The notes below the pieces were generated by a model. The model had not been told where the DNA came from, ran no database searches, and worked only from the letters and a program-made list of their open reading frames with translations. Below, in pieces: positions 13,341 through 57,546 of a stretch of 64,000 nucleotides of DNA. The stretch covers positions 3,638-67,637 of the forward strand of contig CAZEBW010000004.1 in the NCBI GenBank assembly GCA_964510205.1. Direction: 5' to 3'. Source of the stretch: an uncultured Anaerolineae bacterium (GTDB lineage Bacteria; Chloroflexota; Anaerolineae; VGOG01). Position 1 is the first letter of the stretch; every line of letters begins with the position of its first letter. Both the position numbers and the translations under genes were made by a program.

Positions 13341-13419
13341 TGAAGTCCCCCCATAGAAGGAAAGCCCACCGGGATGCAGGAGAGTTGGGCCGGATAAACT
13401 AAGGTGTTCTGCGATATCG

Positions 13420-17205: not shown

Positions 17206-17241
17206 TTGTCGGATTCTCCCAAGCGCGGCGCGTCCTTCAGT

Positions 17242-19639: not shown

Positions 19640-19665
19640 GGCACTCCTGCCGATTGCATCTTGTC

Positions 19666-20067: not shown

Positions 20068-20459
20068 TCTCTTACTCCTTCGTGCTTACCATGGCGATTA
20101 CGCGGCACCTGTGGAAACAGAATGATCTCCCTGACCTGCTCGAAGAGATCCTCGCTTCCGAAAGACTTGGCGAAGTAGCGCATGGCTCCCAACCGGTAGG
20201 CCGCAAGCGCCTCTTGGGTCGTGGGTTGTACTGTTGTTACGACCACCCGCTTATCAGAGTATTTCTCAGCGATGACTGCAAGCACGTCCAGGCGGCGGGA
20301 GCTTGCGATGACCAGGTCGAACTGATCCGCTTCGAGTTCAGCGAGTGCTGCCTTGGTGTCAGGCGCAACGACGATTTCAAACTTGTTGAGATCGCTCTTG
20401 GCGAACTCAATCCAGCGAGGTTCGTCGTCAATGATCAGAATGCGAGTTTTCATGATCAC
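20064..20459 (-). CDS. Atypical receiver-like protein (pseudo-receiver; phospho-acceptor Asp apparently replaced)
   Basis: ILIIDDEP present, but the expected D in FDLVI-A-SSRRL is Ala. Confidence 0.55.
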   Translation of the reverse strand: MIMKTRILIIDDEPRWIEFAKSDLNKFEIVVAPDTKAALAELEADQFDLVIASSRRLDVLAVIAEKYSDKRVVVTTVQPTTQEALAAYRLGAMRYFAKSFGSEDLFEQVREIILFPQVPRNRHGKHEGVRE

Positions 20460-24193: not shown

Positions 24194-24228
24194 GGGTCAC
24201 TCTCCTTGTCATCTGTAAATGGGCAGAT

Positions 24229-38814: not shown

Positions 38815-38888
38815 GCGCCGCGACGTCATGTGATGAAGCCGCCGCGACGTCATATGATGAAGCGGCCTCGACGTCATATGATTAAGCG
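38815..38888. repeat. 24-nt tandem repeat x3 (GCCGCGACGTCATRTGATGAAGCS) with internal GACGTC / CATATG palindromes
   Basis: Read directly between the remnant ORF and the GT-C gene. Confidence 0.8.
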
Positions 38889-40990: not shown

Positions 40991-41035
40991 TGACTTAGGA
41001 CCTCGGACTTAGGACCTAGGACTATTCTCACTTTG
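40921..41035. repeat. Inverted heptamer arrays (GTCCYAC x4 / GGACYTAG x4) spanning a GT-C stop/start junction
   Basis: gtcctacgtcccacgtcctacgtctcacgtccgaagtcattgacttaggacctcggacttaggacctaggac. Confidence 0.85.
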
Positions 41036-43332
41036 CTCAACAGGATTCGGTTGCCCATCAGCCGGCCGTCCTGGTCGAGGAGGTCTAAGCGATTCCCGGT
41101 CTCAGCCAGGTAGAGCCCCACCTCGATCTCGTAGACGTCGGGAGGGGCGTCGGGGGCGATGTCTAGCTCGTATTGGTCCACGACGATTTGCCCCCTGGCC
41201 CAGGCGGAAGTGGAAGGCTGCGGCTGGCGGTCCGCTCCTGCCCAGATCTGATCTCCCTCTCTCAGCAGGTGGACGAAGACGGTGTAGGCGTCCCTCATCT
41301 CGGCCAGGCTCTGCCAGTACAGAGTAAGGTGGATGGCTTCGCCCGGCTCGGCCTTTCTGCGGTCCATCTCGTAGCCCACCAGGGCGATCTGGCCCCCAAA
41401 GTTGAAATGCACCGGATTGGGCAGCCCGGTTTCGGACCTGGGCAAGACCCCGATTTTCCCGAAGCGCACGTTATCTCCCGCAAGTTCTCCATTGGCCCCG
41501 TACACGGGTAGGCGTTCGCCCGTCGCAGCGTCGTAAGGCCCCACCTCCAGTTGGGCCGAACTGGGGGCGTAGGTCGTCTCTGGCAGCGTCAGGGTGTAGG
41601 CGTCCGCGATGGCGTCGCCGGCCTGCCACAGCGTGGTAGGGAAGCTGCCCAGTCCGGGGAAGGTGTTCCTCTGGGCTATGACGAGATCGTTTTCGTCCAG
41701 CAGGTGAACGAAGACGGCGTAGTCCCGGTTCATCTCGGCCAGGGATTGCCAGTACAGGGTGACGGTTAGCGAATCGCCGGGTTGCAGGTTGTAGGTTGTA
41801 GGTTGCAGGTTGTAGCCCAGCAGCTTCATCACTCCGCCGAAGTTCATATCCAGGCGATTTGGGATGGCCTCGATCTGTTCGGGAGAGAGCAGGGGCGGCC
41901 TGGCGTAGGCTGGGGCGATGTAGGCCACGGGACAGATGCAGGCGAACACGAACATCGCTCCGGCCAGCAGGGCTGTGGCCTTGCCTCGCCAGCGGGTGGG
42001 AATGAGTTGTAACCATCCCAGCAGGGGCAGGATGGCGAGGGACGCAGTGGCTGGGAAGAGGTGCCGCCCAGAGGGTGCAAAGACCCACTGCAGCCAGCGC
42101 AGCAGGGCGGCGAAGACCAGTAAGCTCCACAGCAGGAGCAGGGCTAAGCCCTGCCATGTGTCATTGCGAGGAGCGGAGCGACGAAGCAATCTCCTCCTTG
42201 CGGCTTGGGGATTGCTTCGCTTCGCTCGCAATGACACATCCGTGAGTTTGGTCCCGTTTCTAACGACTAGAACTAACAGCCCCAGGGCGCCCAGGCGCAC
42301 CACAATTCGCAGGACGGTGTAGATCCAAGGGTGGACGTGGACATTGCCCCAGCCGAAGGCGGCCCAAAAGGACAGCTCCATCTGAGAGAACTCGTGGATC
42401 AACTCGCCGAGGGTGAGCTGCGGCCGGCCGGGGCCCACGATGGCTTGGTGGATCTGCACCCCCAGCGGGTCGCCGTGCAATCGCCAATTCAAAGTATACC
42501 ACCATCCGGCTACGATGGCAACAACAGCAAAGACGATCAGGCATGCCTTGAGAAAGGCCCACCCAGAGCCTCTGCGCCAGGCGGCCATGGCGATGGCCAC
42601 GACCGCAGCAGGCAGCAGGGCCAGCGCGCTCGCTTTGGTGATGAGGGCCAATCCCACGGTCAGCCCCAGCCAGACCAGACGGCGGGTGGAGAGGCCCCTT
42701 CTCCTCAGGCGGACCATGAGCCACAGGGCCAGGGTGCACAGGGCCGACACTGCGCTGTCGTTGCTCACTGCACTTGATATAAAGATGAACTGCGGATTGA
42801 AGGCCACCAGGCCCGCTGCACCAGCGGCGAAAGAACGTTGCCGGGGGAACAACTCCAGCGCAATCAGATAGGTGGCCAAGACGGTGGTTGCTCCCCAGAG
42901 CACCGACACCAGGCGGGCCATACGAACGGCCAACACCGCGCCGCGATAGGGGAAGCGTTCCTCGTTGGTGTGAAGCACTCGGTTTTTGTTGTCGTTGACC
43001 GTGCCAGGCGCGCTGTAGCCCCAGAAAGGATTGAGCCACGCCAGGTTCTGCCAATCGTCGTCTTCGATCCAGAACGTAGCCAAAGCCGCCGTGACATAAT
43101 ACAGTGGGGGCTGGGTGGCCTCCTGTCTCATCAGAGGCTGCGTTTGCGCCAGGCTCTGCACCGGCAGACCTTTCCCGTCGCCCAGCCATTTGACGTAAGG
43201 GTAATGCCACAACTCGTCGGGCTTCTCGAAGAGGGGCGTGGCTGCGTTGTAGGCGATGCCCAGGGCGAAAAACGCGGTTAGGATTAGGATGATGGCCCAA
43301 TGTTGTTTGATGGTCCGAGGTCCCCTATCCAT
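40987..43332 (-). CDS. PMT/ArnT-like GT-C glycosyltransferase, paralog 2, with 3 C-terminal repeats
   Basis: FEKPDELWHYPY loop motif; contains in-frame GGTTGTA repeats (TYNLQPTTYNLQP) and the palindromic element (SLRAKRSNPQAARRRLLRRSAPRNDT). Confidence 0.6.
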   Translation of the reverse strand: MDRGPRTIKQHWAIILILTAFFALGIAYNAATPLFEKPDELWHYPYVKWLGDGKGLPVQSLAQTQPLMRQEATQPPLYYVTAALATFWIEDDDWQNLAWLNPFWGYSAPGTVNDNKNRVLHTNEERFPYRGAVLAVRMARLVSVLWGATTVLATYLIALELFPRQRSFAAGAAGLVAFNPQFIFISSAVSNDSAVSALCTLALWLMVRLRRRGLSTRRLVWLGLTVGLALITKASALALLPAAVVAIAMAAWRRGSGWAFLKACLIVFAVVAIVAGWWYTLNWRLHGDPLGVQIHQAIVGPGRPQLTLGELIHEFSQMELSFWAAFGWGNVHVHPWIYTVLRIVVRLGALGLLVLVVRNGTKLTDVSLRAKRSNPQAARRRLLRRSAPRNDTWQGLALLLLWSLLVFAALLRWLQWVFAPSGRHLFPATASLAILPLLGWLQLIPTRWRGKATALLAGAMFVFACICPVAYIAPAYARPPLLSPEQIEAIPNRLDMNFGGVMKLLGYNLQPTTYNLQPGDSLTVTLYWQSLAEMNRDYAVFVHLLDENDLVIAQRNTFPGLGSFPTTLWQAGDAIADAYTLTLPETTYAPSSAQLEVGPYDAATGERLPVYGANGELAGDNVRFGKIGVLPRSETGLPNPVHFNFGGQIALVGYEMDRRKAEPGEAIHLTLYWQSLAEMRDAYTVFVHLLREGDQIWAGADRQPQPSTSAWARGQIVVDQYELDIAPDAPPDVYEIEVGLYLAETGNRLDLLDQDGRLMGNRILLSKVRIVLGPKSEVLSQ
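42157..42238. repeat. Palindromic repeat element, copy 2, inserted in frame inside a GT-C CDS
   Basis: atgtgtcattgcgaggagcggagcgacgaagcaatc...gattgcttcgcttcgctcgcaatgacacat. Confidence 0.75.
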
Positions 43333-43583
43333 AGTCCATAGTCCTAGGTCCGATGGAAGGCGGCCTCGGACCTAGCGCGATTTCACAAAACAGGCATTGA
43401 TTCTTGAGACAGCGTCCGCCAGGGGCTCCGCTGCGCTCAAGCCCCTGGCTCAGTCTACAAAGCCCCCGCTGGGGCTGGGGTCGTCAGGCCGCAGGCCTTT
43501 GTACCTGAGCCCGGCGGCTTCAGCCCCGGGCGGAGTGGCGGCGGAGTCAACCTTTGTTGTGTGATGCAGTGCTAGGCTTGGAT

Positions 43584-45926
43584 TTATTTGACTCGTACTT
43601 TGCTCAACAGCACGCGGTCGTCCAGCAGCCGCCCGCCCTCCCCCACGATTCTCAGGCGGTCGCCTGTCTCCGCCAGGTAGAAGCCTATCTCGACGTCGTA
43701 CACGTCGGCGGGAGTGTCGGCATAGATGGTAAGTTCGTATTCGTCCACTATCGTCTGGCCGGGCTGCCAAGTCGAAGTGGGGGACTTGCCGTCCAGGGGC
43801 CAGCTATCCTCTTGGGCCCAGATGCGGTTCTCTTCTCCCAAAACGTGGGTGAACACGGAGTAGTCTTCTTTCATGTCAGCCAGCCCCTGCCAGTAGAGGG
43901 TCAGGTGGATGGTCTCGCCGGGCGCGGCCGTCCGTCGGTCCATATCGTATCCGACGAGGGCGATCTTGTTTGCGAAGTTGAAGTGGACGGGGTTGGGCGC
44001 CTCTGCTTCAGCTCGGGGCAGGATCTCGAATTGGTGGAAGCGGACGTTGTCGCCCAGGGCCTCTCCATTGGGAGCGTAGGCCGACAGCCGCTCCCCGGTG
44101 TCGAAGTTGTAGAGTCCCACGGCCAGTTGGGCTTGGTTGGGGGCGAAGGCCGTCTCTGGCAGGATGAGGACGTAGCGGTTGGCGATGGCCTCTCCTGGCG
44201 ACCAGAGGCTGGTGGGATAGAGGCCCTGTCCGGGGTACATGTCTCGTTGGGCGACGATGAGCTCGGTTTGGTCGAGCAGGTGGACGAAGGTGCTGTAGTT
44301 CTCGTTCATTTCGGCCAGGGCTTGCCAGTAGAGGGTGACCTCCAGTGAATCGCCAGGTTTCAGGTGACTGGGTATTGGGTATTGGGTATTGGGTATTGCG
44401 TAGCCTAGCAGCTTGATCACTTCGCCGAAGGAGACGTCGAGGCGGTTGGGGATGGCCGCGATCTCTGCTGGTGAGAGGGGTTGGGGTTTGGCGTAGGCGG
44501 GGGCGATGTAGCGGAAGGGGGTGGCGGCGGCGATGATGAACATCAGGCTGCCCAGCAGGCAGGCCAGCGTTTTGGTGTAAGCGAAGCGGCGGTTTTTGTA
44601 AGCGAAGCGACGGCGTCGGGGCACGAACTGGCTCAGGCCCAAGAAGAGCAGGATGGAGAGGGCCGAGATAGCTGAAAAGACCAGTCGCCCTTGAGAGGAC
44701 CAGGTCAGCAGCGCCCAGCGGATCAGGGATATGAACACGATGGCCGGCCAGGCCAGCAGCAGCGCTACTTTGATCCAGGCCTCTGGCCGTGGTTTGTCTC
44801 CAATCAATTTGCGAATCAGGAAGGCGATCACCCCCAGGGCGGCTGCTATGGCCATGAGATTCAGCAGGTCGTAGACCCAGGCATCCATGGGCACGTTCAC
44901 CCCGCCGAACAGGCCCCAGTACGACATGGCGAAGCCCTCACGCTCCCCCCACAATTGACGGAGGGTGGCGGGCGGGTGGCGCCGGCCCAGAATGTCCAGG
45001 AACACGTTTAGCCCCAGGGGGTCGCCGTAGAGCTTCCAATTCCTGACAAACCACCAGCCTGACAGGAGTGCAGCCAGACCCACCACGATGAGGCCGCCTT
45101 GCAGGAGAGTTCGCCAGGAGCGTTGACGGTAAGCAGCGTAGGCGACGGTCAGGCCCGCCAGCGCCAGGAGACCGATGGCGCTCTCTTTGGTCAGGATGGC
45201 CAATCCTATGACCAGCCCCAGCCATGCCCAATCGCGGTTTGCGGTTTGCGGTTTGCGATTTGCGATTTGTGGTTTGCGATTTGTGATTTTGACCATCATC
45301 AGCAGGGCCAGGCTGCACAAGGGCACCACCAAGTTGTCGTTGTTGATCGCGCCGCTGACGAACAGGAACATGGGAGTGAAGGCGTTGACGGCGGCTGCGC
45401 CCAGGGCCAAGTCCTCGCGGCCGGGGAAGATCTCCAGAGCGAGCAGGTAAGTCAGCAGCACCGTGGCCGCTCCCATCAACACCGAGAGGAAGCGTATGAG
45501 GTGCACGGCCAGGGCCGTCCCATGCCAGGGGAAGGCCTCTTGTTCGGAGTGTATGACCAAATTGGTGTTGCCGTCGGCGGTCAGCACGCCGTTATCCACG
45601 TGGGGGTTGGGCCATAACAGGGGCGGCTGGCCGTGGTAGGCGTCGTCGGTGTCAATCCAGAAAGTGGCCAGGGCGCCCAGGGCGTAGTACAGGGGCGGCT
45701 GGCTCCCCTCCTGCCGCCAGGGCTGATCAATGCCGGGATCCTGCACGGGTAGACCGTGGCCGTCCGCCAGGTGCTTGACGAAGGGGTAGTGCCACAACTC
45801 GTCGGAGGCCTCGAAGATGGGTGTGACTACGCTGTAGGCAACGCCCAGGGCGATAAACGTGGCCAGGATGAGGGCGATGGCTAAAGGTTGTAGGTTGTAG
45901 GTTCTAGATTTTAGGGTTGCGTTCAT
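43584..45926 (-). CDS. PMT/ArnT-like GT-C glycosyltransferase, paralog 3
   Basis: FEASDELWHYPF motif; in-frame heptamer insertions at 44361-44400 (GGTATTG; AIPNTQYPIPS), 44575-44610 and 45225-45290 (GCGRTTT; KITNRKPQIANRKPQTANRD). Confidence 0.6.
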   Translation of the reverse strand: MNATLKSRTYNLQPLAIALILATFIALGVAYSVVTPIFEASDELWHYPFVKHLADGHGLPVQDPGIDQPWRQEGSQPPLYYALGALATFWIDTDDAYHGQPPLLWPNPHVDNGVLTADGNTNLVIHSEQEAFPWHGTALAVHLIRFLSVLMGAATVLLTYLLALEIFPGREDLALGAAAVNAFTPMFLFVSGAINNDNLVVPLCSLALLMMVKITNRKPQIANRKPQTANRDWAWLGLVIGLAILTKESAIGLLALAGLTVAYAAYRQRSWRTLLQGGLIVVGLAALLSGWWFVRNWKLYGDPLGLNVFLDILGRRHPPATLRQLWGEREGFAMSYWGLFGGVNVPMDAWVYDLLNLMAIAAALGVIAFLIRKLIGDKPRPEAWIKVALLLAWPAIVFISLIRWALLTWSSQGRLVFSAISALSILLFLGLSQFVPRRRRFAYKNRRFAYTKTLACLLGSLMFIIAAATPFRYIAPAYAKPQPLSPAEIAAIPNRLDVSFGEVIKLLGYAIPNTQYPIPSHLKPGDSLEVTLYWQALAEMNENYSTFVHLLDQTELIVAQRDMYPGQGLYPTSLWSPGEAIANRYVLILPETAFAPNQAQLAVGLYNFDTGERLSAYAPNGEALGDNVRFHQFEILPRAEAEAPNPVHFNFANKIALVGYDMDRRTAAPGETIHLTLYWQGLADMKEDYSVFTHVLGEENRIWAQEDSWPLDGKSPTSTWQPGQTIVDEYELTIYADTPADVYDVEIGFYLAETGDRLRIVGEGGRLLDDRVLLSKVRVK

Positions 45927-48900
45927 TGCACTTGCACCTTGCTCAACAGAATGCGGTCGCCGGGCAAAGGTTCGCCCTGTTCATCGAAAGCGGGAAGTCG
46001 CTGCATGGTCTCCAAATCGTACATCCCCACTTCGATCTGGTACTCGCCGGCCGGTGCGGCCGCGTCCACGATGATCTCGTATTCGTCTACCACGACCTCG
46101 CCGGGAAGCCAGCTCGTCGTCGGATGCGCGCCCCTCATGGGAAGGTTATCTTTTTGCCCCCAGGTGCGATTCTGGGCGTCTACGAGGTGGGTGAAGACGG
46201 TGTAGCTGGTCTCCATTTCTTGCTGTAAGCGAAGCGGCGCTTGCCAGTAGAGGGTGAGGTGCAGCGTGCCGCCTGGCTTCACGGTGGTCTTGTCGAGATC
46301 GTAGCCGAGGAAGGCCACCTTGTCAGCCAGGTTCGCTCGCAAGGGATGTTGGATGTCGGTGGGCGCGGTGAAAAGCCGCTCAGGGGCGATTACCGACAAT
46401 GTCGCCAGAGGTTGGAAGTCGGAAGTTGGAGATTGGAGGTTGGAAGGTTGAATTTTGAAGTTTAAGCTTTGCTCGCCCGTTGGAGCAGCGGCATCAACCG
46501 CCAGGTCGTATTGGCCGCGAATGACCTCGCCTTCCTTCCAGCGGCTGGTGGGGTATTCTTCGTTGGCCAATGGGAACTCTCCCCTGGCCCAAACGTTTCC
46601 CGTGCTGTCTTGCATCTGTAGATGAAGGCGGTAGTCGCTTTCCATCGAGCGCAGCGCCCGCCAGAAGAGCGCGGCTCGCATTGTCTCCCCCGCCCGCGCT
46701 TCGGTGGACGACAGGTCGTAGCCCAGGAGTTCCACCTGGCCGTCGAAGTCGTGACGCAGGGGGTGGGGGATGGCCAGCTCCTCGATGGTCGGCGGCACGC
46801 TGGGGCTGGCTACGGCGACTGTCCCCAAGGCGTACTCCGTACCCGCTGGCGCGTTCCTTTCGTCCAAGATGCGCAGGCTTTGCAGCGTGTCCACATCATA
46901 AACGACCAGCTCCACTTGATAGCGGCCCGGCGGGATGCCAGGCAGCAGGGAGAGGGTATGATGCCTCTCCACGATCCCGCCCACCTCCCAGGCATAGGTC
47001 GCCAGGCCGTCTTCGTTCTCCAGCCATTCGTCTGTTTGGCTCCAAAGGCGCCCCTGTTCGTCCACCAGGCGGAGGGAGAGGGCGTAGCCCTCCTGCATCT
47101 GCGCCTGGGTCTCCCACCGAAGGGCGACCCCCAACTGCTTTCTGTACTCGATGATGTCCCCGGTGAAGCCGTGGCCCGTCAGCCGCAAGCGGTTGCCGAA
47201 ATTGACGTTAGCCTGGACCTGGATGGGGCTCAAATCCAGGTCCAGAGGAGAGGTGAGGAGATAGCGAGAGACGGTGGTATGGGGAAGGGCCTCTCGGCCG
47301 ATGAGCAGGGCATGGGTATTCAGTTGGTAACTGATCCAATTGCCCATATCGCTTTCTGGGTAGGCCACGTACCATAGCTGTCGGGGCGCGGCGGACTCTG
47401 TTAGCTTGTCGGTCATGTCGGTCCAGCCCTGGCTATCGGAGACGACGTAGTAGGTCAGCGGCCCTTGATAATGCTTGACGAAGGGCGAGTCGGCGTCGAG
47501 CAGCACGACGTCGTCCGGCTGAGCCTGGCTCTCCAAATAGGCGATCAGCTCTTGGTAGTAAGTGTTGGGATAGATCCAGGCGTAGTCCACGCCGCGAATC
47601 TTGACCACGTGCTCTGGCTGCTGTTGACCGTGGAGAGCCGCTGTGACGGGCGAGTCTTGCTGCACATCGCTGACGTAGAGCACGGCGTAATCGGCGGTAG
47701 CTGTGTTGTGCTCCGTCAGTGCTTCCGTCTGGCCCTTGAACAGGGGGGCGAACCCTGGGATGTCCCAGGTGGCAACGCGAAGGTCTGTTGCATTCTCCTT
47801 TTGATTCAAATATCTGGCCGCCAGATCCATGCCCTCGCCCCAGCCCGCGGGCAGGATTTGGATGGCTCTGGATGTGCCGCCCAGCAGGGGGTTGGCGTAG
47901 GCCAGATAGTAGGGATGGTAGGGCAAGGCGAGAGCAGCCTGGAGGAGCACCACTAAGCTCAGAGCCAGCTCGATCCCCCATCTCCAATGCCTGGATAGGA
48001 AGGCTTCGATGAAATAGACCCACCCAACAGCGGCCAGGATGTCAAGGGCCAGAAAGGCGGGCAATAGATACCGCTCGAACTTCTTGGCCCCCACGGCCAG
48101 AGTGATCGTGACCAGGGAAACGTAGACGAGCAGGGCGAGTACCTCGAACCACTTCGAACCTCTTTTCTTTACGATGGCCCAAAATGCTGCTGCCAGTAGG
48201 CCCAGCCAGACGAGGGGCGTCGTCCTGAAGAGCAGGCTGAAGGGATAGAACCAGGGGCCTGGGTCGGAGACGGACTGACCGAGGAAGAAGTTGACGGGGT
48301 GAGGGGTGGCGGCGAAGCGGTGGGCGAGTCCGAAGGTGCCGCGCAGGGTCTCGACGGGAGAGACCCACATAGCTGGCCAAAGGGCCACAAAAGCGATAAC
48401 CGCTACCATGCACCACACCGAGAGGGACCGTAGCGAACTGAAAATCGGCTTGGCCCACGCCTGCCCTGAGCCTTGTCCTGAGGCCGCTTCGCCTACAGTC
48501 GAAGCGTGTCGCCGGAGGATTGCCGACTTCGTGAGACCCTCGAAGCTGAGCAAAAGGGCGGCGAAGGGTAGCAGAGCGAAGGCGGTGGCCTTGGTCAGAA
48601 AGGCCAGGCCGGCTAGGCACCCTGAGAGGCCGAGGTAAACAAGGGAGCGATTATGCCTCAGGTAGACGAGAAGGCTCAGGACGGACAGGATCATCAGGTT
48701 GGCCGCCGCCCCGTCGGTGTGGAAGACTCGCGAATGGGCCAGGTGGAAGGGGTCGAAGCAAATCAAGAGCGCGGCCAGGAGGGCCACCCTCCCCCCGAAG
48801 AGTTTCCTGGTCAGGAGGTATACCCCCACCGCGCTCGCTGCGCCGAGGAGAACGAGTGGGAGCTTGGCTGCCACCAGGAAGAGGGCCAGGCGGCGCAGGG

Positions 48901-49234
48901 CAGCTACGTTGTACAAATCAAGCGTGGCTAGCTGTTGCAGCCAGTTCCACTCGGCCGCCCCTTGCCCCAGCAGGAGCTGGCCGGCTGCCCCCAAAGCCCC
49001 GGCCCACATGATGGTCACCCCAGGCGCCCCCACCTGGAAGGTATCGGCGAAGCGCCCGCTCTCTATGGCAGAGAGGAAGCGGAGCGAGCGGTAGACCCAC
49101 ATTGGCTCGTCCCAGGTGATGAAGGTGTTGAGGGCCAGGATGCGGGGCAGCAAGGCCAAAACGAAAAGGCCCAGGCAGATGAGCGTTTGTCGCTTCTTGT
49201 TACGAAATCGCATTCGCCGCTGGCTCATTTTCAA
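45923..49234 (-). CDS. PMT/ArnT-like GT-C glycosyltransferase, paralog 4 (1103 aa, 3-4 C-terminal repeats)
   Basis: TWDEPMWVYRS loop motif, 12+ TM; C-terminal repeat domains; in-frame GGTTGGA-family array at 46420-46465. Confidence 0.55.
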   Translation of the reverse strand: MKMSQRRMRFRNKKRQTLICLGLFVLALLPRILALNTFITWDEPMWVYRSLRFLSAIESGRFADTFQVGAPGVTIMWAGALGAAGQLLLGQGAAEWNWLQQLATLDLYNVAALRRLALFLVAAKLPLVLLGAASAVGVYLLTRKLFGGRVALLAALLICFDPFHLAHSRVFHTDGAAANLMILSVLSLLVYLRHNRSLVYLGLSGCLAGLAFLTKATAFALLPFAALLLSFEGLTKSAILRRHASTVGEAASGQGSGQAWAKPIFSSLRSLSVWCMVAVIAFVALWPAMWVSPVETLRGTFGLAHRFAATPHPVNFFLGQSVSDPGPWFYPFSLLFRTTPLVWLGLLAAAFWAIVKKRGSKWFEVLALLVYVSLVTITLAVGAKKFERYLLPAFLALDILAAVGWVYFIEAFLSRHWRWGIELALSLVVLLQAALALPYHPYYLAYANPLLGGTSRAIQILPAGWGEGMDLAARYLNQKENATDLRVATWDIPGFAPLFKGQTEALTEHNTATADYAVLYVSDVQQDSPVTAALHGQQQPEHVVKIRGVDYAWIYPNTYYQELIAYLESQAQPDDVVLLDADSPFVKHYQGPLTYYVVSDSQGWTDMTDKLTESAAPRQLWYVAYPESDMGNWISYQLNTHALLIGREALPHTTVSRYLLTSPLDLDLSPIQVQANVNFGNRLRLTGHGFTGDIIEYRKQLGVALRWETQAQMQEGYALSLRLVDEQGRLWSQTDEWLENEDGLATYAWEVGGIVERHHTLSLLPGIPPGRYQVELVVYDVDTLQSLRILDERNAPAGTEYALGTVAVASPSVPPTIEELAIPHPLRHDFDGQVELLGYDLSSTEARAGETMRAALFWRALRSMESDYRLHLQMQDSTGNVWARGEFPLANEEYPTSRWKEGEVIRGQYDLAVDAAAPTGEQSLNFKIQPSNLQSPTSDFQPLATLSVIAPERLFTAPTDIQHPLRANLADKVAFLGYDLDKTTVKPGGTLHLTLYWQAPLRLQQEMETSYTVFTHLVDAQNRTWGQKDNLPMRGAHPTTSWLPGEVVVDEYEIIVDAAAPAGEYQIEVGMYDLETMQRLPAFDEQGEPLPGDRILLSKVQVQ

Positions 49235-49276
49235 CTCCGAGGTAATGCGTTTCTCCCGCTATTCTTGTGCCTGCTC

Positions 49277-50302
49277 TCAATCTGGCTCTGCGGTGAGGGC
49301 TGAGCTCTCAACGGCAGCCTCGTGCGAAGCGCCTGCCCGCTCAATCAACTCAAATCCTTCCCGCGAGAGATAGAAGTAGCCCAAGGCCAGGGGGAGTATG
49401 TGAGTGGCCCGAAAAAGGAGGGCGAAGGCTAGTGCATCGCTCCTGTCGGCGGAGAAGACCGCGAGTATGCCGGCGAAAACGAATTCCAGAGTACCCACTT
49501 TGCCAGGCAGAGCCGGGACGAGGCTTGCCAAGTTGAAGATGACCAGCAGAAGGACATAGATGTATCCGGACAGGGATATGCCTAACGAGGCGCCGGTCAG
49601 AAGAAAGGTGATCAGCATAAGAGACCAAGCCGAAAACGATAGAAGGACTGAGAGCGCCATCCCTCTTCCCTCTTTCAAAATCAACATCCCTTTGCTGAAG
49701 GAGGCCAACAGGTTCTTGGCTTTGGAGGCCAGAGAGGGAGAGATTTTGGCCAACCCCGTGGTCAGCAGATGGGTGATGTCTTCCCCTCGGTGATACCAGC
49801 TCGCCAGGAGAAGGAGGCCGACGGCAAATAGAAGGCCGGCCAGACCACCCACGTACATGATCCAGTCGGGCAGCGGGAAAAGACGGAGGAGCACCAGCAG
49901 GCCAAAGAGTAGAATCAGCACATCGAGCATCCTCTCCACGACGATGGTCGCCAGAACCGTGCTGGTCCGCAGGCTTTCCCCTCTTGCCAGCGCGAAAGCG
50001 CGCAACAACTCGCCCGATTGGACGGGTAGAAAGTAGTTGCCGAAATAACCAATCAAAATCCTGGGCAGCAGAATGCGGACCCTCAAATCCTTAACCGGCC
50101 TGAGAAGATACTTCCAACGGGCGGCTCGCAAGCCGAAAGCCCCCAGGCGAAGCAAATTGGCCAGAACCAGATAGGAGTAGTCAGCTCCTCGCAGGGCCAA
50201 CGCGAGCTTTCCCGCCTCGATATTTCTCACGACCAGGAACAATAGGAGAAGGCTGATTCCAGTTCCGATCAGCAGCCGATATCTTTTCACCGTCAACCCC
50301 AA
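49277..50302 (-). CDS. Flippase-like domain protein (UPF0104 / lysylphosphatidylglycerol-synthase TM-region family)
   Basis: 341 aa, 8 TM, N-terminal KRYRLLIGTGISLLLLFLVV. Confidence 0.55.
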   Translation of the reverse strand: MGLTVKRYRLLIGTGISLLLLFLVVRNIEAGKLALALRGADYSYLVLANLLRLGAFGLRAARWKYLLRPVKDLRVRILLPRILIGYFGNYFLPVQSGELLRAFALARGESLRTSTVLATIVVERMLDVLILLFGLLVLLRLFPLPDWIMYVGGLAGLLFAVGLLLLASWYHRGEDITHLLTTGLAKISPSLASKAKNLLASFSKGMLILKEGRGMALSVLLSFSAWSLMLITFLLTGASLGISLSGYIYVLLLVIFNLASLVPALPGKVGTLEFVFAGILAVFSADRSDALAFALLFRATHILPLALGYFYLSREGFELIERAGASHEAAVESSALTAEPD

Positions 50303-51981
50303 TACCCCAGCCCTTTGAGCCTCTCCTCGATCAACGCGCTATCTTCCTGGGAATAGGCGCCAGCCTGGCCTCCCCGTTCCTCAGGGGCCTCGGTGTAGAG
50401 CACAGGATTGGAGACAAGAAAATCTTCCTGGAGGGCTTCTTTTAGCACTTTCCCATCCATGTCCACAGGCACGGGCAGACCCAGCAGATGTAGGATGGTG
50501 GGAGCGACGTCTATGATCTGCGCTCCCGTGATGGTCTCGTTCTCTCTGATGCCGTCACCCATCAGGGCAATCAAGCCGTTCATCCTATGGTCGCCGGAAT
50601 TGCCGAAGACATCCTCGATGATATGACGGGACGCAAACTCCAATATGCCCAGTGGCTTATATCTCATGTCCCTAGCTATAAAGGAGATATCGGGGGCTTT
50701 GTCAACGTATGGGCCATTGTAGAACTCTTCTTTGGTCAAGATCTCGCCGATAATCTTCTCACCAGTCTGAGGATCTCTAAACTGGCGCAAATCATGTACG
50801 ATTTTATCCCGAAGCTCCTCGTATTCGCGGCCAGGCTCGACAATGCCCTGGGGCTCCCTACCTTTGAGATTGATGAAGATCTGACCGTAGTTGCCTCTGG
50901 AATAGGCCCTTGTTGTGGACCAGTCCACCGACGACATGGAGAGGAACATGGCTTTCAGCAGACGAATCAGTTTGTGGCGTTGAACCAACCCGCCGGAAAG
51001 CCTCAATTTGGCCAGACCGAGCTCCATAGCCAGCCTGTATAGGAGACCGGGGGTGAACCCTCTGCTGAAAAGGGCGTACTTGGCCTTGGTGATGAAATCC
51101 TGTTTCAACCTTAAATAGCCTGACTCCATCAGCCAGATGTTGAAGTTGACGAATTTGTGAATAGGCCCAAAGCCATGATCAGACATTAAGATCACCACGG
51201 TCTCGTCGCCCGCGCTCTGAATCAACTGTTGCAGGCCGGCATCCACCTCCTTGAGAAAGGACATGATCCGACCCTCGAATTTCGCCGCCTCACTGTGGTT
51301 GTGCTTGGGATGGGTGGGATCGAAGATGTGCCACAGTTCGTGTTGGAGCCGATCCATGCCCGAGAAATGCACCATGAAGAAATCCCAATCGTAGTGCTCG
51401 AGAAGGTAGCGGCTCGTGTTAAGCCTGTACTCGAAAACCTGAAAGAGTTCCTCGATGACATGGCCGACTCGCCCTGGGCTGTAGACCTCGGTGTGCAGCA
51501 GGCGGTACTTTCCAAACTTCCTCTCCAGCTCGGGTATCAAAGTCTTGGGGTAGGAAAAGCGCCTATCTCCGGGCGGCGTCAGCATGCCGCTTATGAGGAA
51601 ACCATTGACCTGGCGCGGTGGATAGGTGACCGGCACATTGACCGTTCCTACCTTCTTACCCGCCTCGCTCACCAGGTCCCAGATCGCCTGACCGCTGCAC
51701 ATGTCGGCGCTGACGGGCTCTCGATCGAAGCTCTCTCCGTGGCGAAGGAGGAATTCGAAAACCCCATGTTTGCCGGGGTTTTTGCCCGTCATGAAGGACG
51801 CCCAGGCGGCTGCCGTCACGGGGGGAAAGACGGTGTGCAATTCACCTGCTGCCCCATTCTCAAGCATCTTTCTCAGAACAGGGAGGTGGCCCTCCTTAAT
51901 CAAGGGGTTGAGCAAATCCAAAGTCGCCCCATCGAGGCCGATGACCAAGACCCTGCGATGATTCACGTTCTCCTCTTTCAA
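50293..51981 (-). CDS. Alkaline-phosphatase superfamily protein (type I phosphodiesterase / nucleotide pyrophosphatase family)
   Basis: VLVIGLDGATLDLL...TVFPPVTAAAWASFMTGKNPGKHG (metal-binding / Thr nucleophile region). Confidence 0.7.
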   Translation of the reverse strand: MKEENVNHRRVLVIGLDGATLDLLNPLIKEGHLPVLRKMLENGAAGELHTVFPPVTAAAWASFMTGKNPGKHGVFEFLLRHGESFDREPVSADMCSGQAIWDLVSEAGKKVGTVNVPVTYPPRQVNGFLISGMLTPPGDRRFSYPKTLIPELERKFGKYRLLHTEVYSPGRVGHVIEELFQVFEYRLNTSRYLLEHYDWDFFMVHFSGMDRLQHELWHIFDPTHPKHNHSEAAKFEGRIMSFLKEVDAGLQQLIQSAGDETVVILMSDHGFGPIHKFVNFNIWLMESGYLRLKQDFITKAKYALFSRGFTPGLLYRLAMELGLAKLRLSGGLVQRHKLIRLLKAMFLSMSSVDWSTTRAYSRGNYGQIFINLKGREPQGIVEPGREYEELRDKIVHDLRQFRDPQTGEKIIGEILTKEEFYNGPYVDKAPDISFIARDMRYKPLGILEFASRHIIEDVFGNSGDHRMNGLIALMGDGIRENETITGAQIIDVAPTILHLLGLPVPVDMDGKVLKEALQEDFLVSNPVLYTEAPEERGGQAGAYSQEDSALIEERLKGLGYWG

Positions 51982-51995
51982 ATCAGATCAATCTC

Positions 51996-53678
51996 CTAAG
52001 CTATGTAGCCCAGTCCCTTCAGCCGCTCCAGGATCAGCTCCCTGTCCTCTCCGACGTAGTCCTGGCTGCTCTCCGCTTTTTCCAAAGAGGGCTCGCCATA
52101 AGTTACCCGATGGGATTTCAGGAATCCGGGAGTAAAAGCCTTCTGCAAAACCTTGCCTTCCAGGTCGGAGGGTAGAGGTAGCCCCATAGCGTAAAGGATG
52201 GTGGGAGCGAGGTCAATGATCTGAGCCTCGTCTAAGCTCTCGCCGGCTTTGACACCTCCGCCGTGTAGGATCAATATACCATCCATACTGTGATGGCCCG
52301 TCTGTCCATAGCTGGGCTCGATGACGCGATTTGAACCGAAATCCGCATGGCCGAAGGAAACGTACTTGGAGCGCTCAGTATGCAGAACCAGATCGGGCAT
52401 CCTGTCCAGGCTTTTCCCCTGGAATATCTCCTCTTTTCTATAAGCCCTTTTGATCACCTTCTCGCCGCTTTGAGGATCGCGCAAGCTCTGCGCTTCGCCG
52501 ATTAACCTGTCTCGCAGCCTCTCGTACTCCCGCCCCGGCTCGACAATTCCCTGCGGGTACTTTTCCTTGAGATTGATGTAGACCTGCCCGAAGTTGCCCA
52601 CGGCGAAGGCCCTGGTCTTCGACCAGTTGACATCGGAGAAGGAGAGGAAGAGCTTTTTCAGGAGGCCGAGGGATTTCCCCCGTTTCACGTTTGCCCGCAG
52701 GCCGCTTAGGCCCAAATACGTCGCTAGCTTCAGGATATTCATGGGGGTGAATCCCGCCTGGAACATAGCATACTTGGCCAGGCTGAGCGGATCTTTCTTC
52801 AGGCTCAGCAAGCCCAATTGGCGCAGCCAGTTGTTGACGTGGAAGAAACGATGGAAGGGACCGAATCCGTGATCCGACATCACCACAACGATGGTATCCT
52901 CGTCCGCTTGAGCCAGAATCCGACCCAGGTGGCGGTCAATCTCCCGATAGAAGCTCAGGATGGACTCCCTGTGCAGATCTGCCTGGATGGGATCGTATAG
53001 AGGGTGCTTTTCGTCGAGGAGATGCCAGAGCTCATGTTGCAGCAAATCCACCGATTCGAAGACAGAGACGAAGAAATCCCACTCCCTGTTCTCCAGCAGG
53101 TAAAGCACAGCCTCGACTCTTTGGGCCTCGAACGCTTTCACATCCTCAACGAAACGTTCAATGTTACCAGATCGGTTGCCCTCAGGCGGGGAGAGCGGGA
53201 AATCCCCCACCTTTCGCCGCAGCTCTTCCCTGAGCGAAGGGGGATAGGTGTAATCGCTATCGGGACCAGGGGCCATAAAAGAGCTGACGATGAAGCCGTT
53301 CACCGCCTCGGGGGGATAGGTGACGGGAAAGCTCACTAGCCCCACCTTGCAGCCAGCATCGCTGATGAGATTCCACAGCGTCCTTGAGGTTCTGAAGGTG
53401 GCGTTGGCGACAGATACCTGATAGCTGCCAGGGCGGGGAAAGACGAAATCCACCAACCCGTGTTGTCCAGGGTTCTTGCCCGTGGCGAAGGATGTCCAGG
53501 CCGAGGCCGAGACGGGAGGGATGGTGGTGGTCAGGGCTCCGACCGTCCCTTCGCTCATCAACCTTTGCAGGGTAGGCAATTTGCCGTCCCTGGCCCAAGG
53601 CCGGAGCAGGTCGAAAGTGGCGCCGTCCAGTCCTATTACCAACACTCTTCTGTTCTCCGCGGCGTTCTCAGCAAACAT
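51996..53678 (-). CDS. Alkaline-phosphatase superfamily protein (paralog of the preceding gene)
   Basis: VLVIGLDGATFDLL...TTTIPPVSASAWTSFATGKNPGQHG. Confidence 0.7.
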   Translation of the reverse strand: MFAENAAENRRVLVIGLDGATFDLLRPWARDGKLPTLQRLMSEGTVGALTTTIPPVSASAWTSFATGKNPGQHGLVDFVFPRPGSYQVSVANATFRTSRTLWNLISDAGCKVGLVSFPVTYPPEAVNGFIVSSFMAPGPDSDYTYPPSLREELRRKVGDFPLSPPEGNRSGNIERFVEDVKAFEAQRVEAVLYLLENREWDFFVSVFESVDLLQHELWHLLDEKHPLYDPIQADLHRESILSFYREIDRHLGRILAQADEDTIVVVMSDHGFGPFHRFFHVNNWLRQLGLLSLKKDPLSLAKYAMFQAGFTPMNILKLATYLGLSGLRANVKRGKSLGLLKKLFLSFSDVNWSKTRAFAVGNFGQVYINLKEKYPQGIVEPGREYERLRDRLIGEAQSLRDPQSGEKVIKRAYRKEEIFQGKSLDRMPDLVLHTERSKYVSFGHADFGSNRVIEPSYGQTGHHSMDGILILHGGGVKAGESLDEAQIIDLAPTILYAMGLPLPSDLEGKVLQKAFTPGFLKSHRVTYGEPSLEKAESSQDYVGEDRELILERLKGLGYIA

Positions 53679-53848
53679 ATCTTACCTCAGTGGACGGATT
53701 ATAGACGAAAGCGTGGGTAAAGTCAATGCAGGCCAAACAGCATTTTCCCCCTCGTTGTAGAGGGGGATGACGATAGATCCGTCTGCTTTCACCTCTGCGA
53801 CCCTCCCGCAGACTCTGAGCCTGCGGGAGGGTGTTATTGGCTGTCGGT

Positions 53849-56074
53849 CTATGGCCCGAAGTTCTTGAGCACCAGCGGCAAATAGACGTGGTAGGCGGAT
53901 GTCGGCGTTGTCGTGGATGTGGCAGTGCTGGTTGCGGTAGGCGTAGGTGTGCGGGTGGCCGTTGGTGTGTTGGTCAGCGTTGGAGTCAGCGTGTTTGTAG
54001 GCGTTGGTGTGTTAGTCGGTGTTGAGCTTGGCGTGGCGGTAGAGGTTGATGTAGAGGTGGGCGTCGGCGTAGGCTCGTCTGTGATGCGCAAGATGAGGAG
54101 GCCACCTGCGTTATCGGCCACGTAGACGTAGTCCCCGGCCACCTGAACGCCTCTGGCATCGCCGGGCGTGTCAAAGGCCCCAACTTCGATGGGATTTTCC
54201 TTGTCAGCCACGGAGACGATCCGCAGGCCAGCGCTTCCATAGGCCACGTAGGCGAGGTTTCCTACGACCTGAACGTCGAAGGCCCAGCCACGGATGTCAA
54301 ATGAGCCGACCTCGGTGGGATGGGCCTTGTCGGCCACCGAGATGATCCGCAGACCGCCCCCCCGATCGGCGACGTAGGCATAACTGCCAGCCACGTGCAC
54401 ACCGCTTGCCCGGTCGGGTGTATCGCAGAAGCCTTCCTCTGTAGGATTGGCCTTGTCGGCAATGGAGATGACGCGCAGCCCGCTTTCTCCGTCGGCGACG
54501 TAAGCGTGGTTGCCGACCACGTGCACGCCGCTTGCCTGGTCGGGTGTATCGCAGAAGCCTTCCTCTGTGGGATTGGCCTCATCGGCAACGGAGATGATGC
54601 GCAGCCCGCTTTCTCCATCGGCGACGTAGGCATAAGCCGCTGTCGCTTCCGAGGCCGCTGCCGCTTCGCCCACTACATGAACGCCTTTGGCGTCATCGGG
54701 CGTCTCGGCGAAGCTGACTTCGGTGGGGTTTGCTTTGTCCGAAACGGAGATGACGCGCAGCCCAGCCACGCCATCGGCGACGTAGGCGTAAGCCGCTGCC
54801 GCTTCCGAGGCCGCTGTCGCTTCCGAGGCCGCTTCTGCTTCCGAGTCACCCACCACGTAAACGCCCTTAGCCGAACCAGTGGTATTCCAGAAGCCTTCTT
54901 CTGTAGGATTGGCCTTGTCGGCCACCGAGATGACTCTAAGTCCCTCGTCCCACTCAGCGACGTAGGCATAGTTCACTTCCGAGGCCGCTTCCACATAAAC
55001 ATCCCTTGCCTCGCCAGCGGTGTCGAAGAAGCCTTCCTCTGTCGGACTGGCCTTGTCGGCCACGGAGATGACTCGGAGGCCGCCTGTCTCATCGGCGACG
55101 TAAGCGCGGTTGTCAGCTACGTGAACGTCGAACGCTCGGTCGGGTGTGTCACAGGAACCGACTTCAGTGGGATTCTCCTTGTCGGCCACCGAGATGACCC
55201 GCAGCCCGCCGTAGTTGTGGGCGATGTAGGCATGGTCGCCCACAACGTGGACCTTCCTGGCATAGCCAGATAGGTCCAGATGGCCAGTCTCAGAAGGATT
55301 CTGCTTGTGGGCGACTGAGATCACCCGCAGACCTCTATCCCAATTGGTGACGTAGGCGTGGGCCGCTCCCGCTTCCGAGTCGTCCATGACGTGAACGCCA
55401 TTGGCCGAGCCTGGCATATCGAAGAAGCCGACCTCGGTGGGGTTGGCCTTGTCGGCGACGGAGATGATCCGAAGCCCTCCGGTTCCAGCAGCGACGTAGG
55501 CGTAGGCTCCCAAAACGTGGACGTCTTCTGCCGAGTCGGGCGTGTAGAGGGAGCCTACCTCGGTTGGATTCGCCTTGTCAGCAACGGAAATGATCCGCAG
55601 CCCGCTCCACTCGTCGGCCAGGTAGGCGTACTCGCCAACGACATGAACGCTGTGGGCACGGTCCAAATCTAGGTGACCTACCTCAGTGGGGTTGCCTTTG
55701 TCGGCAAGCGAGATGATCCTTAGGCCCCCGTCCCCAGCGGCGATATAAGCGTAGGCCGTTTCCACTTCCGAGTCCCCTTCCACGTGGATGTCCCTCACGA
55801 TGCCGGGGAGCGCTTCAGTGCGTCCCATCTCGGTGGGGTTGGCCGGATCGGAGACATCCACGATGACCAGCTTCAGCCCGTTGCCGACATAAGCGTACTG
55901 TCCGGCGACGTGAACGGCGTGAGTCGCTCCCCTAATCTGGCCCACTAACTCCAGCGCCAAACCGTTCTGGGCGCCCTGGGGCGGAAGGGCCAGCCCCGAA
56001 AGGGAAGTGCCCGCCAGGATAAGTGCGAGGCTGATGACGACCGGGGCAATCTTCCAGAGATGTTCTTTGTTCAT
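53849..56074 (-). CDS. Secreted LVIVD-repeat beta-propeller protein with Thr/Pro-rich C-terminal linker and short hydrophobic tail
   Basis: Signal peptide MNKEHLWKIAPVVISLALILAG; ~14 repeats of YAYVAD..GLRVISVADKANPTE (LVIVD motif at LKLVIVDVSDPANPTEMG); PT-rich segment; ends AYHVYLPLVLKNFGP. Confidence 0.7.
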   Translation of the reverse strand: MNKEHLWKIAPVVISLALILAGTSLSGLALPPQGAQNGLALELVGQIRGATHAVHVAGQYAYVGNGLKLVIVDVSDPANPTEMGRTEALPGIVRDIHVEGDSEVETAYAYIAAGDGGLRIISLADKGNPTEVGHLDLDRAHSVHVVGEYAYLADEWSGLRIISVADKANPTEVGSLYTPDSAEDVHVLGAYAYVAAGTGGLRIISVADKANPTEVGFFDMPGSANGVHVMDDSEAGAAHAYVTNWDRGLRVISVAHKQNPSETGHLDLSGYARKVHVVGDHAYIAHNYGGLRVISVADKENPTEVGSCDTPDRAFDVHVADNRAYVADETGGLRVISVADKASPTEEGFFDTAGEARDVYVEAASEVNYAYVAEWDEGLRVISVADKANPTEEGFWNTTGSAKGVYVVGDSEAEAASEATAASEAAAAYAYVADGVAGLRVISVSDKANPTEVSFAETPDDAKGVHVVGEAAAASEATAAYAYVADGESGLRIISVADEANPTEEGFCDTPDQASGVHVVGNHAYVADGESGLRVISIADKANPTEEGFCDTPDRASGVHVAGSYAYVADRGGGLRIISVADKAHPTEVGSFDIRGWAFDVQVVGNLAYVAYGSAGLRIVSVADKENPIEVGAFDTPGDARGVQVAGDYVYVADNAGGLLILRITDEPTPTPTSTSTSTATPSSTPTNTPTPTNTLTPTLTNTPTATRTPTPTATSTATSTTTPTSAYHVYLPLVLKNFGP

Positions 56075-56099
56075 CTTTCCTTCCATTCGCTTCTCTTGC

Positions 56100-57305
56100 T
56101 CAGGTGATCTGATCTTGCAGAACTCTCTCGTAAAGCGCACCTGTTTTCTCAGCGATCTTCTCCCAGGTGAAGCTCTGGGCTAGTCTGGCCGCCCCCTCGC
56201 CCAGGCGCCGCCGCAGCTCGGCGTTCGACGCCAGTCTGGCAATGGCCTCGGCCAGCGCGACCGGGGCGTCGGGGGGGACGAGGAGGATGTTCTCTCCATG
56301 CACAAGCTCAGGCACGTCCGCTCGTGGGCGGGTGCTGACGGTGGGCAGGCCATGGGCCAGGGCGGCCATGAAGCTCCCCCGCCGGAACGAGGCCCCGTCC
56401 CGGTAGGGCAGCACGCAGATGTCGGAGGCCAGCAAGTTGGCTGAGACCTCGGCCTGGGGAGTGTAGCCCGTCCAAAACACGCTATCCGTCAGGCCCAGCT
56501 CCGCGATCAAACCTTCGACCCTCTTCAGATAGGCCAGGTTGGTGGGATCGCTGGAGCCTACTTTGCCCCCTACCATCATCAGTTGGAGGTTGGAGGTTGA
56601 TTGCATCAGCCTAGCCAGGGCACGTATCAGGGTTTCGGCTCCTTTGCTCTTGTTGAGGAAGCCGAAGTAGGAGAGCAGGATGTCATCCGGTCCCACGCCC
56701 CAACGGGCTCGCCAGGCCTCGCGGTCGTAGTCCGCCGGCGGTGCGGGGCTGATGTTGGAGCCGATGGGGATCAGCGATAGGGAGCGGATGGACGAATAAT
56801 CGGACAGCCTGGCGAAATCCTCGGCGTTGGTGGCGATGACGGCGTCGCTCCAGCGGGCCAGGGCCAGGTTCACCCACCAGCGCAGGGGGCCGGCTTTGGG
56901 GAAGAGGTAGGGCACCTTTAGATCGTGGAAGGTGACTACGGTCAACGGATGGTCTTTGGAAGAACGGGACGCGAGGCGCAGCGGCAGGAGATTGATGGCC
57001 GGGTGCATGTCGTAGGCGGCTGTCTGGTATTGGATGTTGACGATGTCGGAGCGGGTCTCGTTCAGTAGCTCGATGATGCGTCGCCAGGAGCCCCAATCCC
57101 ATTTCTCGATGATAGGGAAAAGGGACAAGTGACCAGTGACAAGGGGCAGCCCTGATCCCTTGTCCCTAGTCCCTAGTCCCTTGACCGAGGTGATAACGCT
57201 GACCTCAACTCCCAGCTCGGCCAGCGCCTTACCCAGCTCGTTGGTGAAATCTCCCACACCGCCTTGCATGGGTGGGAACTCGCCGCTGATTAGACACACT
57301 TTCAT
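56100..57305 (-). CDS. Glycosyltransferase family 4
   Basis: MKVCLISGEFPPMQGGVGDF... GT-B fold with E-x7-E region; in-frame heptamer insertions at 56575-56600 and 57140-57180. Confidence 0.8.
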   Translation of the reverse strand: MKVCLISGEFPPMQGGVGDFTNELGKALAELGVEVSVITSVKGLGTRDKGSGLPLVTGHLSLFPIIEKWDWGSWRRIIELLNETRSDIVNIQYQTAAYDMHPAINLLPLRLASRSSKDHPLTVVTFHDLKVPYLFPKAGPLRWWVNLALARWSDAVIATNAEDFARLSDYSSIRSLSLIPIGSNISPAPPADYDREAWRARWGVGPDDILLSYFGFLNKSKGAETLIRALARLMQSTSNLQLMMVGGKVGSSDPTNLAYLKRVEGLIAELGLTDSVFWTGYTPQAEVSANLLASDICVLPYRDGASFRRGSFMAALAHGLPTVSTRPRADVPELVHGENILLVPPDAPVALAEAIARLASNAELRRRLGEGAARLAQSFTWEKIAEKTGALYERVLQDQIT

Positions 57306-57546
57306 GCTTCGGTCCTGCTTTCGAGAACACGGATGTACAGGGTAGTCCCCCTCTTGGGTGTTGTTGATTGGCCCTCGGTCTGAAGACCTCGGCTGATACA
57401 GGAAATCCGTTGAAACGGATTCAGAACAAATGCGATTTATCGCATTTTATGTCTCAGCCGGGCAATTCATTGCTCGGCAAGGCCAGCAACACTCTACGGG
57501 GGGACTACCGAGTACAGGATTTACGGATTTTGCCTCAAGCTGGGTA

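Follow-up and report, generated by a model that had tools for sequence, protein, structure and literature searches.

The LVIVD-repeat protein encoded at 53849-56086 in a stretch of 64,000 nucleotides (nt) from an uncultured Anaerolineae bacterium (GenBank assembly GCA_964510205.1, contig CAZEBW010000004.1, positions 3,638 to 67,637; the whole stretch is referred to below as the window) ends in a YLP-box, a short C-terminal motif shared with many unrelated exported proteins of Chloroflexota. Judging from its sequence and distribution, the YLP-box most likely serves to sort proteins to the cell surface or to retain them there. It is proposed, with a probability of roughly 0.6, that after export through the Sec pathway a conserved envelope factor would read the box and keep the protein at the cell surface. 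The cell envelope of Chloroflexota is unusual, and its building and decoration are poorly understood. These bacteria abound in wastewater, sediment and hot springs; a 10-residue tag lacking a transmembrane segment would label their surface proteome and would point to undiscovered sorting machinery, the main interest being what reads a tag of this kind. For annotation, recognition of the tag classes hundreds of "hypothetical" proteins as surface-directed. The features of the gene and its product are as follows.

53849-56086, minus strand: LVIVD / choice-of-anchor B coding sequence, 745 amino acids (aa) plus stop, a single open reading frame (ORF) in the ORF list
55988-56086, minus strand: predicted N-terminal Sec-type signal peptide, MEGKMNKEHLWK followed by the hydrophobic core IAPVVISLALILAGTSLSGLA
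54083-55963, minus strand: 14 LVIVD repeats, read as two tandem seven-bladed beta-propellers
53897-54079, minus strand: Pro/Thr/Ser-rich linker of 61 residues (from the translation), read as a stalk
53852-53896, minus strand: C-terminal tail AYHVYLPLVLKNFGP, with the core YLPLVLK at 53864-53884, then 4 residues and the stop

The tail and the catalogued YLP-box

Two NCBIfam models, NF053834 (ultrashort_CTERM) and NF050076 (sort_motif_YLP), both carry the name "YLP-box putative sorting motif-containing protein", and the window tail shares with them consensus, position and lineage (Chloroflexota); the family itself consists of a curated sequence pattern only. When scanned alone, the tail passes NF053834 at 13.3-13.6 bits (cutoff 10) across all model positions (1-10 of 10), while typical tails reach 14.5-15.1 bits on this model and 14.3-19.6 bits on NF050076. 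In a scan of the full-length protein the NF053834 match is not reported, presumably having been removed by the HMMER filters, and the E-values of the tail (0.02-0.065) are inherently weak for a 10-residue motif. On a scoring matrix derived from homologue tails, the window tail scores 28.2 bits.

Departures from the typical form are small. Lys occupies the basic position, where Arg is commoner, and 4 residues trail it instead of the usual 0-3, within the range of 0-5 found in 61 genomic examples. The initial annotation had described a hydrophobic tail without charged residues, but the Lys of YLPLVLK stands where the motif has its conserved basic residue. In the window protein the box is not followed by a transmembrane segment, the 18-residue hydropathy maximum of the tail being 0.42. 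The further suggestion that the tail is an uncharacterised sorting or attachment signal of this lineage holds insofar as many exported Chloroflexota proteins share it; as a motif, however, it is already catalogued in the two NCBIfam models. The window protein is thus an addition to a catalogued yet uncharacterised motif class, known to NCBI curators and, as far as was found, unpublished.

Distribution of the box in LVIVD homologues and across Chloroflexota

The consensus of the box is [YWFH]-[RKQH]-[VIL]-Y-L-P-[LIV]-[VI]-[LMI]-[RK], followed by 0-5 residues. Its core ([VIL]-Y-L-P-[LIV]-[VI]-[LMI]-[RK]) forms the C-terminal end of 45 of the 120 best LVIVD homologues, and in 41 of these 45 the motif Tyr lies 7-10 residues from the C-terminus. 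Roughly 36 of the 45 have a classical N-terminal signal peptide by hydropathy, and none of the 45 has a hydrophobic segment of transmembrane length at the C-terminus. The remaining homologues of the best 120 end in a type IX secretion system (T9SS) C-terminal domain, in a transmembrane segment with basic residues or in SLH domains. Alternative C-terminal anchors are what the family name of the TIGR04312 / PF08309 proteins implies, and on the sequence comparison the box appears as a substitute for the anchors borne by homologues of other phyla, in a "choice of anchor" pattern. Across Chloroflexota classes, the homologue tails retain an invariant Pro and a near-invariant Y-L at fixed positions.

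The spread beyond LVIVD proteins was assessed by a degenerate DNA scan with the pattern VYLPLVL[KRHQNS] over one genome per Genome Taxonomy Database (GTDB) species, which returned at least 120 loci; the counts that follow are among the matches listed. Chloroflexota account for 87 of 120 loci. In this phylum a long ORF ends 0-5 residues after the match in 61 of 90 cases, as against 1 of 33 in other phyla. Fifty-nine of the 61 box-ended ORFs were scanned and contain 51 Pfam families; the carriers are all of exported or surface types, including right-handed beta-helix (Beta_helix), PKD, CARDB, peptidases C25 and M28, FG-GAP, Ig-like and a Bmp substrate-binding protein. The 58 loci with C-terminal boxes are labelled Anaerolineae (36), Chloroflexia (11, including Chloroflexaceae and Herpetosiphonaceae), Thermoflexia (4) and unclassified Chloroflexota (7). 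No Dehalococcoidia, Ktedonobacteria or Thermomicrobia labels occur among these 58, and the pattern, in which Leu is encoded as CTN, may miss low-GC lineages. An unseeded scan was also made, in which every long ORF of the fetched loci, apart from the seeded sites, was scored with a matrix built solely from homologue tails. It yielded 16 additional C-terminal boxes against 3 internal ones in the Chloroflexota loci listed, an enrichment of about 220-fold per position, and no boxes in the non-Chloroflexota loci among those listed.

These results bear on the explanation that the tail is nothing special, whether as a plain continuation of the linker, as a coincidental match or as the translation of a DNA element (a terminator or repeat, for instance) conserved at gene ends. 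Only the shortness of the motif, with its inherently weak E-values, speaks for such an origin. The C-terminal enrichment in Chloroflexota with none in the other loci listed, the diversity of Pfam families, the lack of a terminator-like site at the gene end and the codon usage all speak against it, and this explanation is effectively refuted. The codons of the box vary synonymously, its basic position using CGN, AGR and AAR, which argues for selection on the peptide and not on a DNA element. The initial annotation had named, as grounds for abandoning its proposal, that no other proteins share the tail or that the tail is simply the end of the linker; the first is clearly contradicted by the 45 homologues, 61 ORFs and 16 unseeded ORFs, and the second by the presence of the same box on unrelated proteins, the pass on NF053834 and the C-terminal enrichment.

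Eleven scan matches (L003, L031, L039, L064, L072, L078, L082, L095, L106, L107 and L118) are false positives for the YLP-box. They lie in an internal membrane segment (...GLT[ST]A-VYLPLVL[HN]S...) that is conserved in a large family of GT-C-like membrane proteins found in metagenome-assembled genomes (MAGs) labelled Chloroflexia and Limnocylindrales.

Two further observations concern box carriers. One locus (L093:1813-7830) holds three tandem genes (571, 789 and 573 aa), every one ending ...VYLPLVLRSY. In several tailed proteins, the "DIGADE" end of a beta-helix domain immediately precedes the box, an ending reminiscent of the choice-of-anchor Q family of NCBI.

Comparison with known sorting signals

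Like LPXTG/sortase signals, the window tail lies at the C-terminus of a presumably Sec-exported surface protein, has an L-P core and is preceded by a Pro/Thr-rich linker of the wall-spanning kind. It differs in having no T-G, no transmembrane helix of about 20 residues and no basic cluster: the window sequence reads LPLVLKNFGP and then stops, which is not an LPXTG-type signal.

The PEP-CTERM/exosortase, PGF-CTERM/archaeosortase and GlyGly-CTERM/rhombosortase systems likewise use lineage-restricted, Pro-containing C-terminal signatures on many unrelated exported proteins, and the YLP-box mirrors in miniature their order of signature, hydrophobic stretch and basic residue. Nevertheless, these systems require a full transmembrane helix, whereas the hydrophobic part of the YLP-box spans 3-4 residues and the box may be internal. 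No exosortase- or archaeosortase-type NCBIfam match is found in the window protein at E-values up to 10, and its tail has no segment of transmembrane length.

The T9SS type A sorting domain (PF18962) takes the place of the box at the C-terminus of many LVIVD homologues (e.g., P0002 and P0087), but it is a folded domain of 80-100 residues belonging to diderm, Bacteroidota-type secretion. The window protein has no PF18962 or TIGR04183 match.

Proposed function of the box and its alternatives

In the proposed mechanism, the signal peptide would direct the LVIVD protein to Sec export, after which a putative envelope factor would recognise the box and retain the protein either covalently or by docking. 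The box would form the cell-proximal end of the exported protein, a probably glycosylated Pro/Thr (PT)-rich stalk of about 60 residues would span the wall layer, and the two seven-bladed propellers would face outward. That the protein is retained at the surface, that the linker acts as a stalk and that it is glycosylated are all predictions. The box may be regarded as a miniature three-part sorting signal, comprising a Pro-containing signature, 3-4 hydrophobic residues in place of a transmembrane helix and one basic residue.

Several observations weigh against this proposal. The window tail narrowly misses NF050076 (14.4-14.7 bits against a cutoff of 15, model positions 2-10 of 11), and no publication or experiment on the YLP-box motif was found in the literature. 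Export of the LVIVD protein via Sec is itself presumed from a signal peptide judged from hydropathy only. The box has no equivalent of the transmembrane helix by which classical sorting substrates are kept at the membrane. No sortase-, exosortase- or rhomboid-like gene is present among the annotated window ORFs, and no non-tailed gene family recurs beside the tailed genes across the 58 loci listed. Finally, about 14% of the R/K-type boxes in Chloroflexota are internal (among the matches listed), which implies that a free C-terminus is not strictly required.

The failure to find either a transmembrane segment or a partner gene would be expected if the short peptide partitioned unaided into the outer leaflet of the cytoplasmic membrane, as a direct interfacial anchor needing no enzyme or receptor. 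The aromatic and basic residues that flank the 6-7 aliphatic residues of the box suit such an anchor, and internal boxes beside an N-terminal membrane anchor (L013/L114) would also be membrane-close. The invariant Pro and near-invariant Y-L, however, exceed the needs of generic hydrophobicity and point to recognition by a protein, while seven hydrophobic residues would be a weak hold on proteins of 700-1500 aa. Direct anchoring is therefore considered unlikely.

A sortase- or exosortase-like transpeptidation, with cleavage within or after YLP and covalent joining to wall or lipid, would be a sub-case of recognition by an envelope factor. In its favour, exported proteins carry the L-P core at the C-terminus behind a PT-rich linker, much as LPXTG proteins of Gram-positive bacteria do, and the box replaces known sorting domains in choice-of-anchor families; internal boxes are compatible with an endoproteolytic site. 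This chemistry is nonetheless improbable, given that T-G, the transmembrane helix and the basic cluster are all missing and that sortase or exosortase genes are neither found among the annotated window ORFs nor recurrent near tailed genes.

The internal boxes either lie where domains of exported multidomain proteins meet or follow closely on an N-terminal membrane anchor. They include L013/L114 and L014/L108, each found conserved in a pair of MAGs, as well as L058, L074, L100 and L112, and in L117 a single ORF carries one internal and one terminal box. Such placement suits a site of cleavage or transpeptidation, or else a portable docking peptide. It would also agree with a processing or turnover signal, in which the box is not an anchor but a protease site for maturation or shedding, a C-terminal degron or a quality-control tag: cleavage at domain junctions would part the modules, and the proximity of most boxes to the C-terminus recalls the sites of C-terminal processing proteases. 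Yet trimming just 4-7 residues from most carriers would serve no obvious purpose, the box takes the exact place of anchors in homologues, and one carrier is a substrate-binding protein, which has to remain with the cell. A role in processing or turnover is thus very improbable, and retention at the cell surface by a factor that reads the box remains the preferred explanation.

Architecture of the LVIVD protein

The LVIVD gene most likely starts at ATG 56086, which sits 13 nt beyond the stop codon of the upstream GT4 glycosyltransferase gene; the gene was called with an identical start on an independent Logan contig (L123). The ORF extends at most to 56140. In placing the gene at 53849-56074, the initial annotation had the ORF, strand and stop right, but its start, 56074, is an alternative, the next in-frame ATG. 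The N-terminus of the product is basic and then enters the core (12-residue hydropathy maximum 2.9), and the AlphaFold2 (AF2) model has a helix at residues 14-24; hydropathy, charge pattern and helix would together fit a signal peptide. Cleavage would be expected near GLA/LP.

Pfam PF08309 (LVIVD) matches 13 stretches with a repeat of about 42 residues (370 bits against a cutoff of 20.2, E = 1.7e-113), and 14 LVIVD motifs are counted by eye and regular expression, in agreement with the approximately 14 blades first reported. The repeats are modelled with a seven-bladed propeller fold, so that the protein is a beta-propeller on this evidence, and the array probably forms two seven-bladed propellers. 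TIGR04312 (choice-of-anchor B) is matched at 122.2 bits against a curated cutoff of 100; compared with other TIGR04312 / PF08309 proteins, the window protein is distinguished by its 14 repeats (a double propeller) and by Ala/Ser/Glu loop inserts. The linker rich in Pro, Thr, Ser and Asn, estimated at about 55 residues in the initial annotation, is present and measures 61, and the predicted local distance difference test (pLDDT) score of the AF2 model is below 50 across residues 673-745.

An antisense ORF of 317 aa lies inside the LVIVD gene (54320-55273, plus strand). It is repetitive and rich in Gly, Asp and Val, and most likely arises from the repeat array without being a gene.

Blade repeats, assembly support and relatives of the gene

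54356-54607, no strand assigned: most similar adjacent blades (9 and 10), 126-nt period, 84% identity; holds the sole repeated 31-mer
54792-54845, no strand assigned: 18-nt tandem repeat GCCGCTGYCGCTTCCGAG in 3 copies (Tandem Repeats Finder, 88% matches), encoding an Ala/Ser/Glu-rich loop insert of blade 7

The blade array has a period of 126 nt. Blades 9 and 10, compared in register (54356-54481 vs 54482-54607), are identical at 106 of 126 positions (84%), most other pairs share about 50-75%, and the longest exact internal repeat of the gene is 31 nt. These values do not bear out the earlier claim that blocks of about 100 nt are nearly identical between adjacent blades; its example, 54400-54500 vs 54500-54600, is just 19% identical because an offset of 100 nt is out of register.

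The recurrence of alanine/serine/glutamate-rich inserts, by comparison, is borne out. They occupy an equal loop position in blades 3, 6, 7 and 8, and a copy of the 18-nt repeat (94%) at 54636-54667 encodes the insert of blade 8. The insert loops of blades 7 and 8 are low in pLDDT (residues 416-425 and 476-480). The 18-nt repeat looks recent in origin, and blade number varies in relatives, both in line with the proposal of recent amplification; the blades themselves, at no more than 84% DNA identity, make it weaker than first stated. Taken as sequence, the array appears evolutionarily plastic, with 14 blades against about 7 in related contigs and a microsatellite-like 18-nt loop insert. This combination of repeat array and loop microsatellite suggests a variable surface adhesin.

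Two independent Logan short-read contigs, from runs SRR7048218 and SRR7048220, agree with the window at every position of 55089-57370 and 48799-54352, thereby corroborating the start, linker and tail of the gene (the tail sequence lies on contig L124). Both contigs terminate within the repeat array, so that 54353-55088 (736 nt, including the 18-nt repeat) is supported by the window assembly alone. The assembly risk attributed to the repeats is therefore real, but it is confined to this interval.

Gene order was compared in 80 metagenomic loci anchored on an orthologue of the upstream GT4 (52-83% identity), the majority of which have no LVIVD gene after GT4. In two of them (L131 and L133, GT4 74-75% identical), a 394-aa LVIVD protein with about 7 blades and a PT linker is encoded at the matching position, and in L131 this shorter LVIVD-PT-YLP gene lies in a similar glycosylation block. 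It has 48% identity to the C-terminal half of the window protein and ends ...SPYRVYLPLVLKNFGER; despite this divergence elsewhere, ...YRVYLPLVLKNFG is kept nearly intact. In a database of 5.8 billion proteins, the nearest LVIVD proteins reach merely 41-54% identity, whereas neighbouring genes have orthologues at 70-80%; the closest named relatives of the window genes come from Anaerolineales, Anaerolineae and Chloroflexi MAGs. Distant homologues beside well-conserved neighbours, together with the lack of the gene after most GT4 orthologues, would fit a fast-evolving, dispensable surface protein.

A second tailed protein in the window

29503-31119, plus strand: GH99-like hydrolase with an N-terminal membrane or signal segment, ending ...APQLTFLPLITKNW (tail at 31090-31116)

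The initial annotation proposed a search for the tail in other secreted proteins of the genome, and the window holds one such protein, albeit with a divergent and borderline version. In MAGs of Anaerolineales, Anaerolineae and Chloroflexi, about 27 close orthologues of this hydrolase, approximately 70-80% identical across most of their length, keep [LFM]LPL[IL]..., mostly followed by TKN, while remoter GH99 proteins terminate ahead of the tail or bear dockerins. The tail of one orthologue (P0139) exceeds the NF053834 cutoff with 14.5 bits. With that model no match is reported for the window copy, whose score on the homologue-tail matrix is 12.0 bits. The GH99-like tail may accordingly be classed, as a borderline case, as a divergent YLP-box.

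Genomic context

56100-57305, minus strand: GT4 glycosyltransferase, directly upstream of the LVIVD gene, co-directional, 13-nt gap
38882-53678, minus strand: envelope glycosylation block, co-directional with the LVIVD gene
50293-53678, minus strand: two Phosphodiest-family enzymes
49277-50302, minus strand: LPG_synthase_TM protein
38882-49234, minus strand: four PMT_2-type GT-C glycosyltransferases

The LVIVD gene lies inside a large co-directional glycosylation cluster (36974-62560), in which the order of transcription is GT2, GT4, the LVIVD gene, two Phosphodiest-family genes, LPG_synthase_TM and four PMT_2-type GT-C genes. The cluster also encodes, near the block, a Wzy_C-like protein, a polyprenyl synthase and a phosphomannomutase/phosphoglucomutase (PGM/PMM). 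Because the LVIVD gene sits among PMT_2 GT-C, GT2, GT4 and polyprenyl synthase genes, the PT linker is a plausible substrate for O-glycosylation.

A broader hypothesis is offered tentatively and with somewhat less than even odds. The YLP-box would define a surface-retention or sorting pathway of filamentous Chloroflexota (Anaerolineae, Thermoflexia and Chloroflexia) that needs no transmembrane segment and whose machinery is unrelated to sortases, exosortases and T9SS. Its internal occurrences at domain junctions would make it a portable docking or cleavage element and not a strictly terminal signal. In the window, the protein tethered by the box would be a propeller adhesin that is glycosylated, evolves rapidly and is encoded within the very cluster that glycosylates it.

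A sigma-70-like promoter match, TTGACT-17-TATAAT (11/12), is present at 53698-53726 on the minus strand, within the 170 nt that separate the LVIVD stop from the next gene, and no terminator-like site was found after the LVIVD gene. The downstream Phosphodiest genes may have their own promoter.

Elsewhere in the window, a block of lower GC content (11841-25569, minus strand; 0.50-0.55 against approximately 0.60 elsewhere) encodes a TPR protein, a Band_7/SPFH protein, two response-regulator-CHAT protease fusions, a HATPase_c protein, a response-regulator-Schlafen/AlbA_2 fusion and a 1245-aa histidine kinase with six GAF domains, and looks like a signalling or defence-like island. In addition, a 429-aa protein (26441-27730, minus strand) matches CHU_C ("type IX secretion signal domain") at residues 34-136, near its N-terminus. 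To our knowledge, Chloroflexota is not a phylum expected to possess T9SS.

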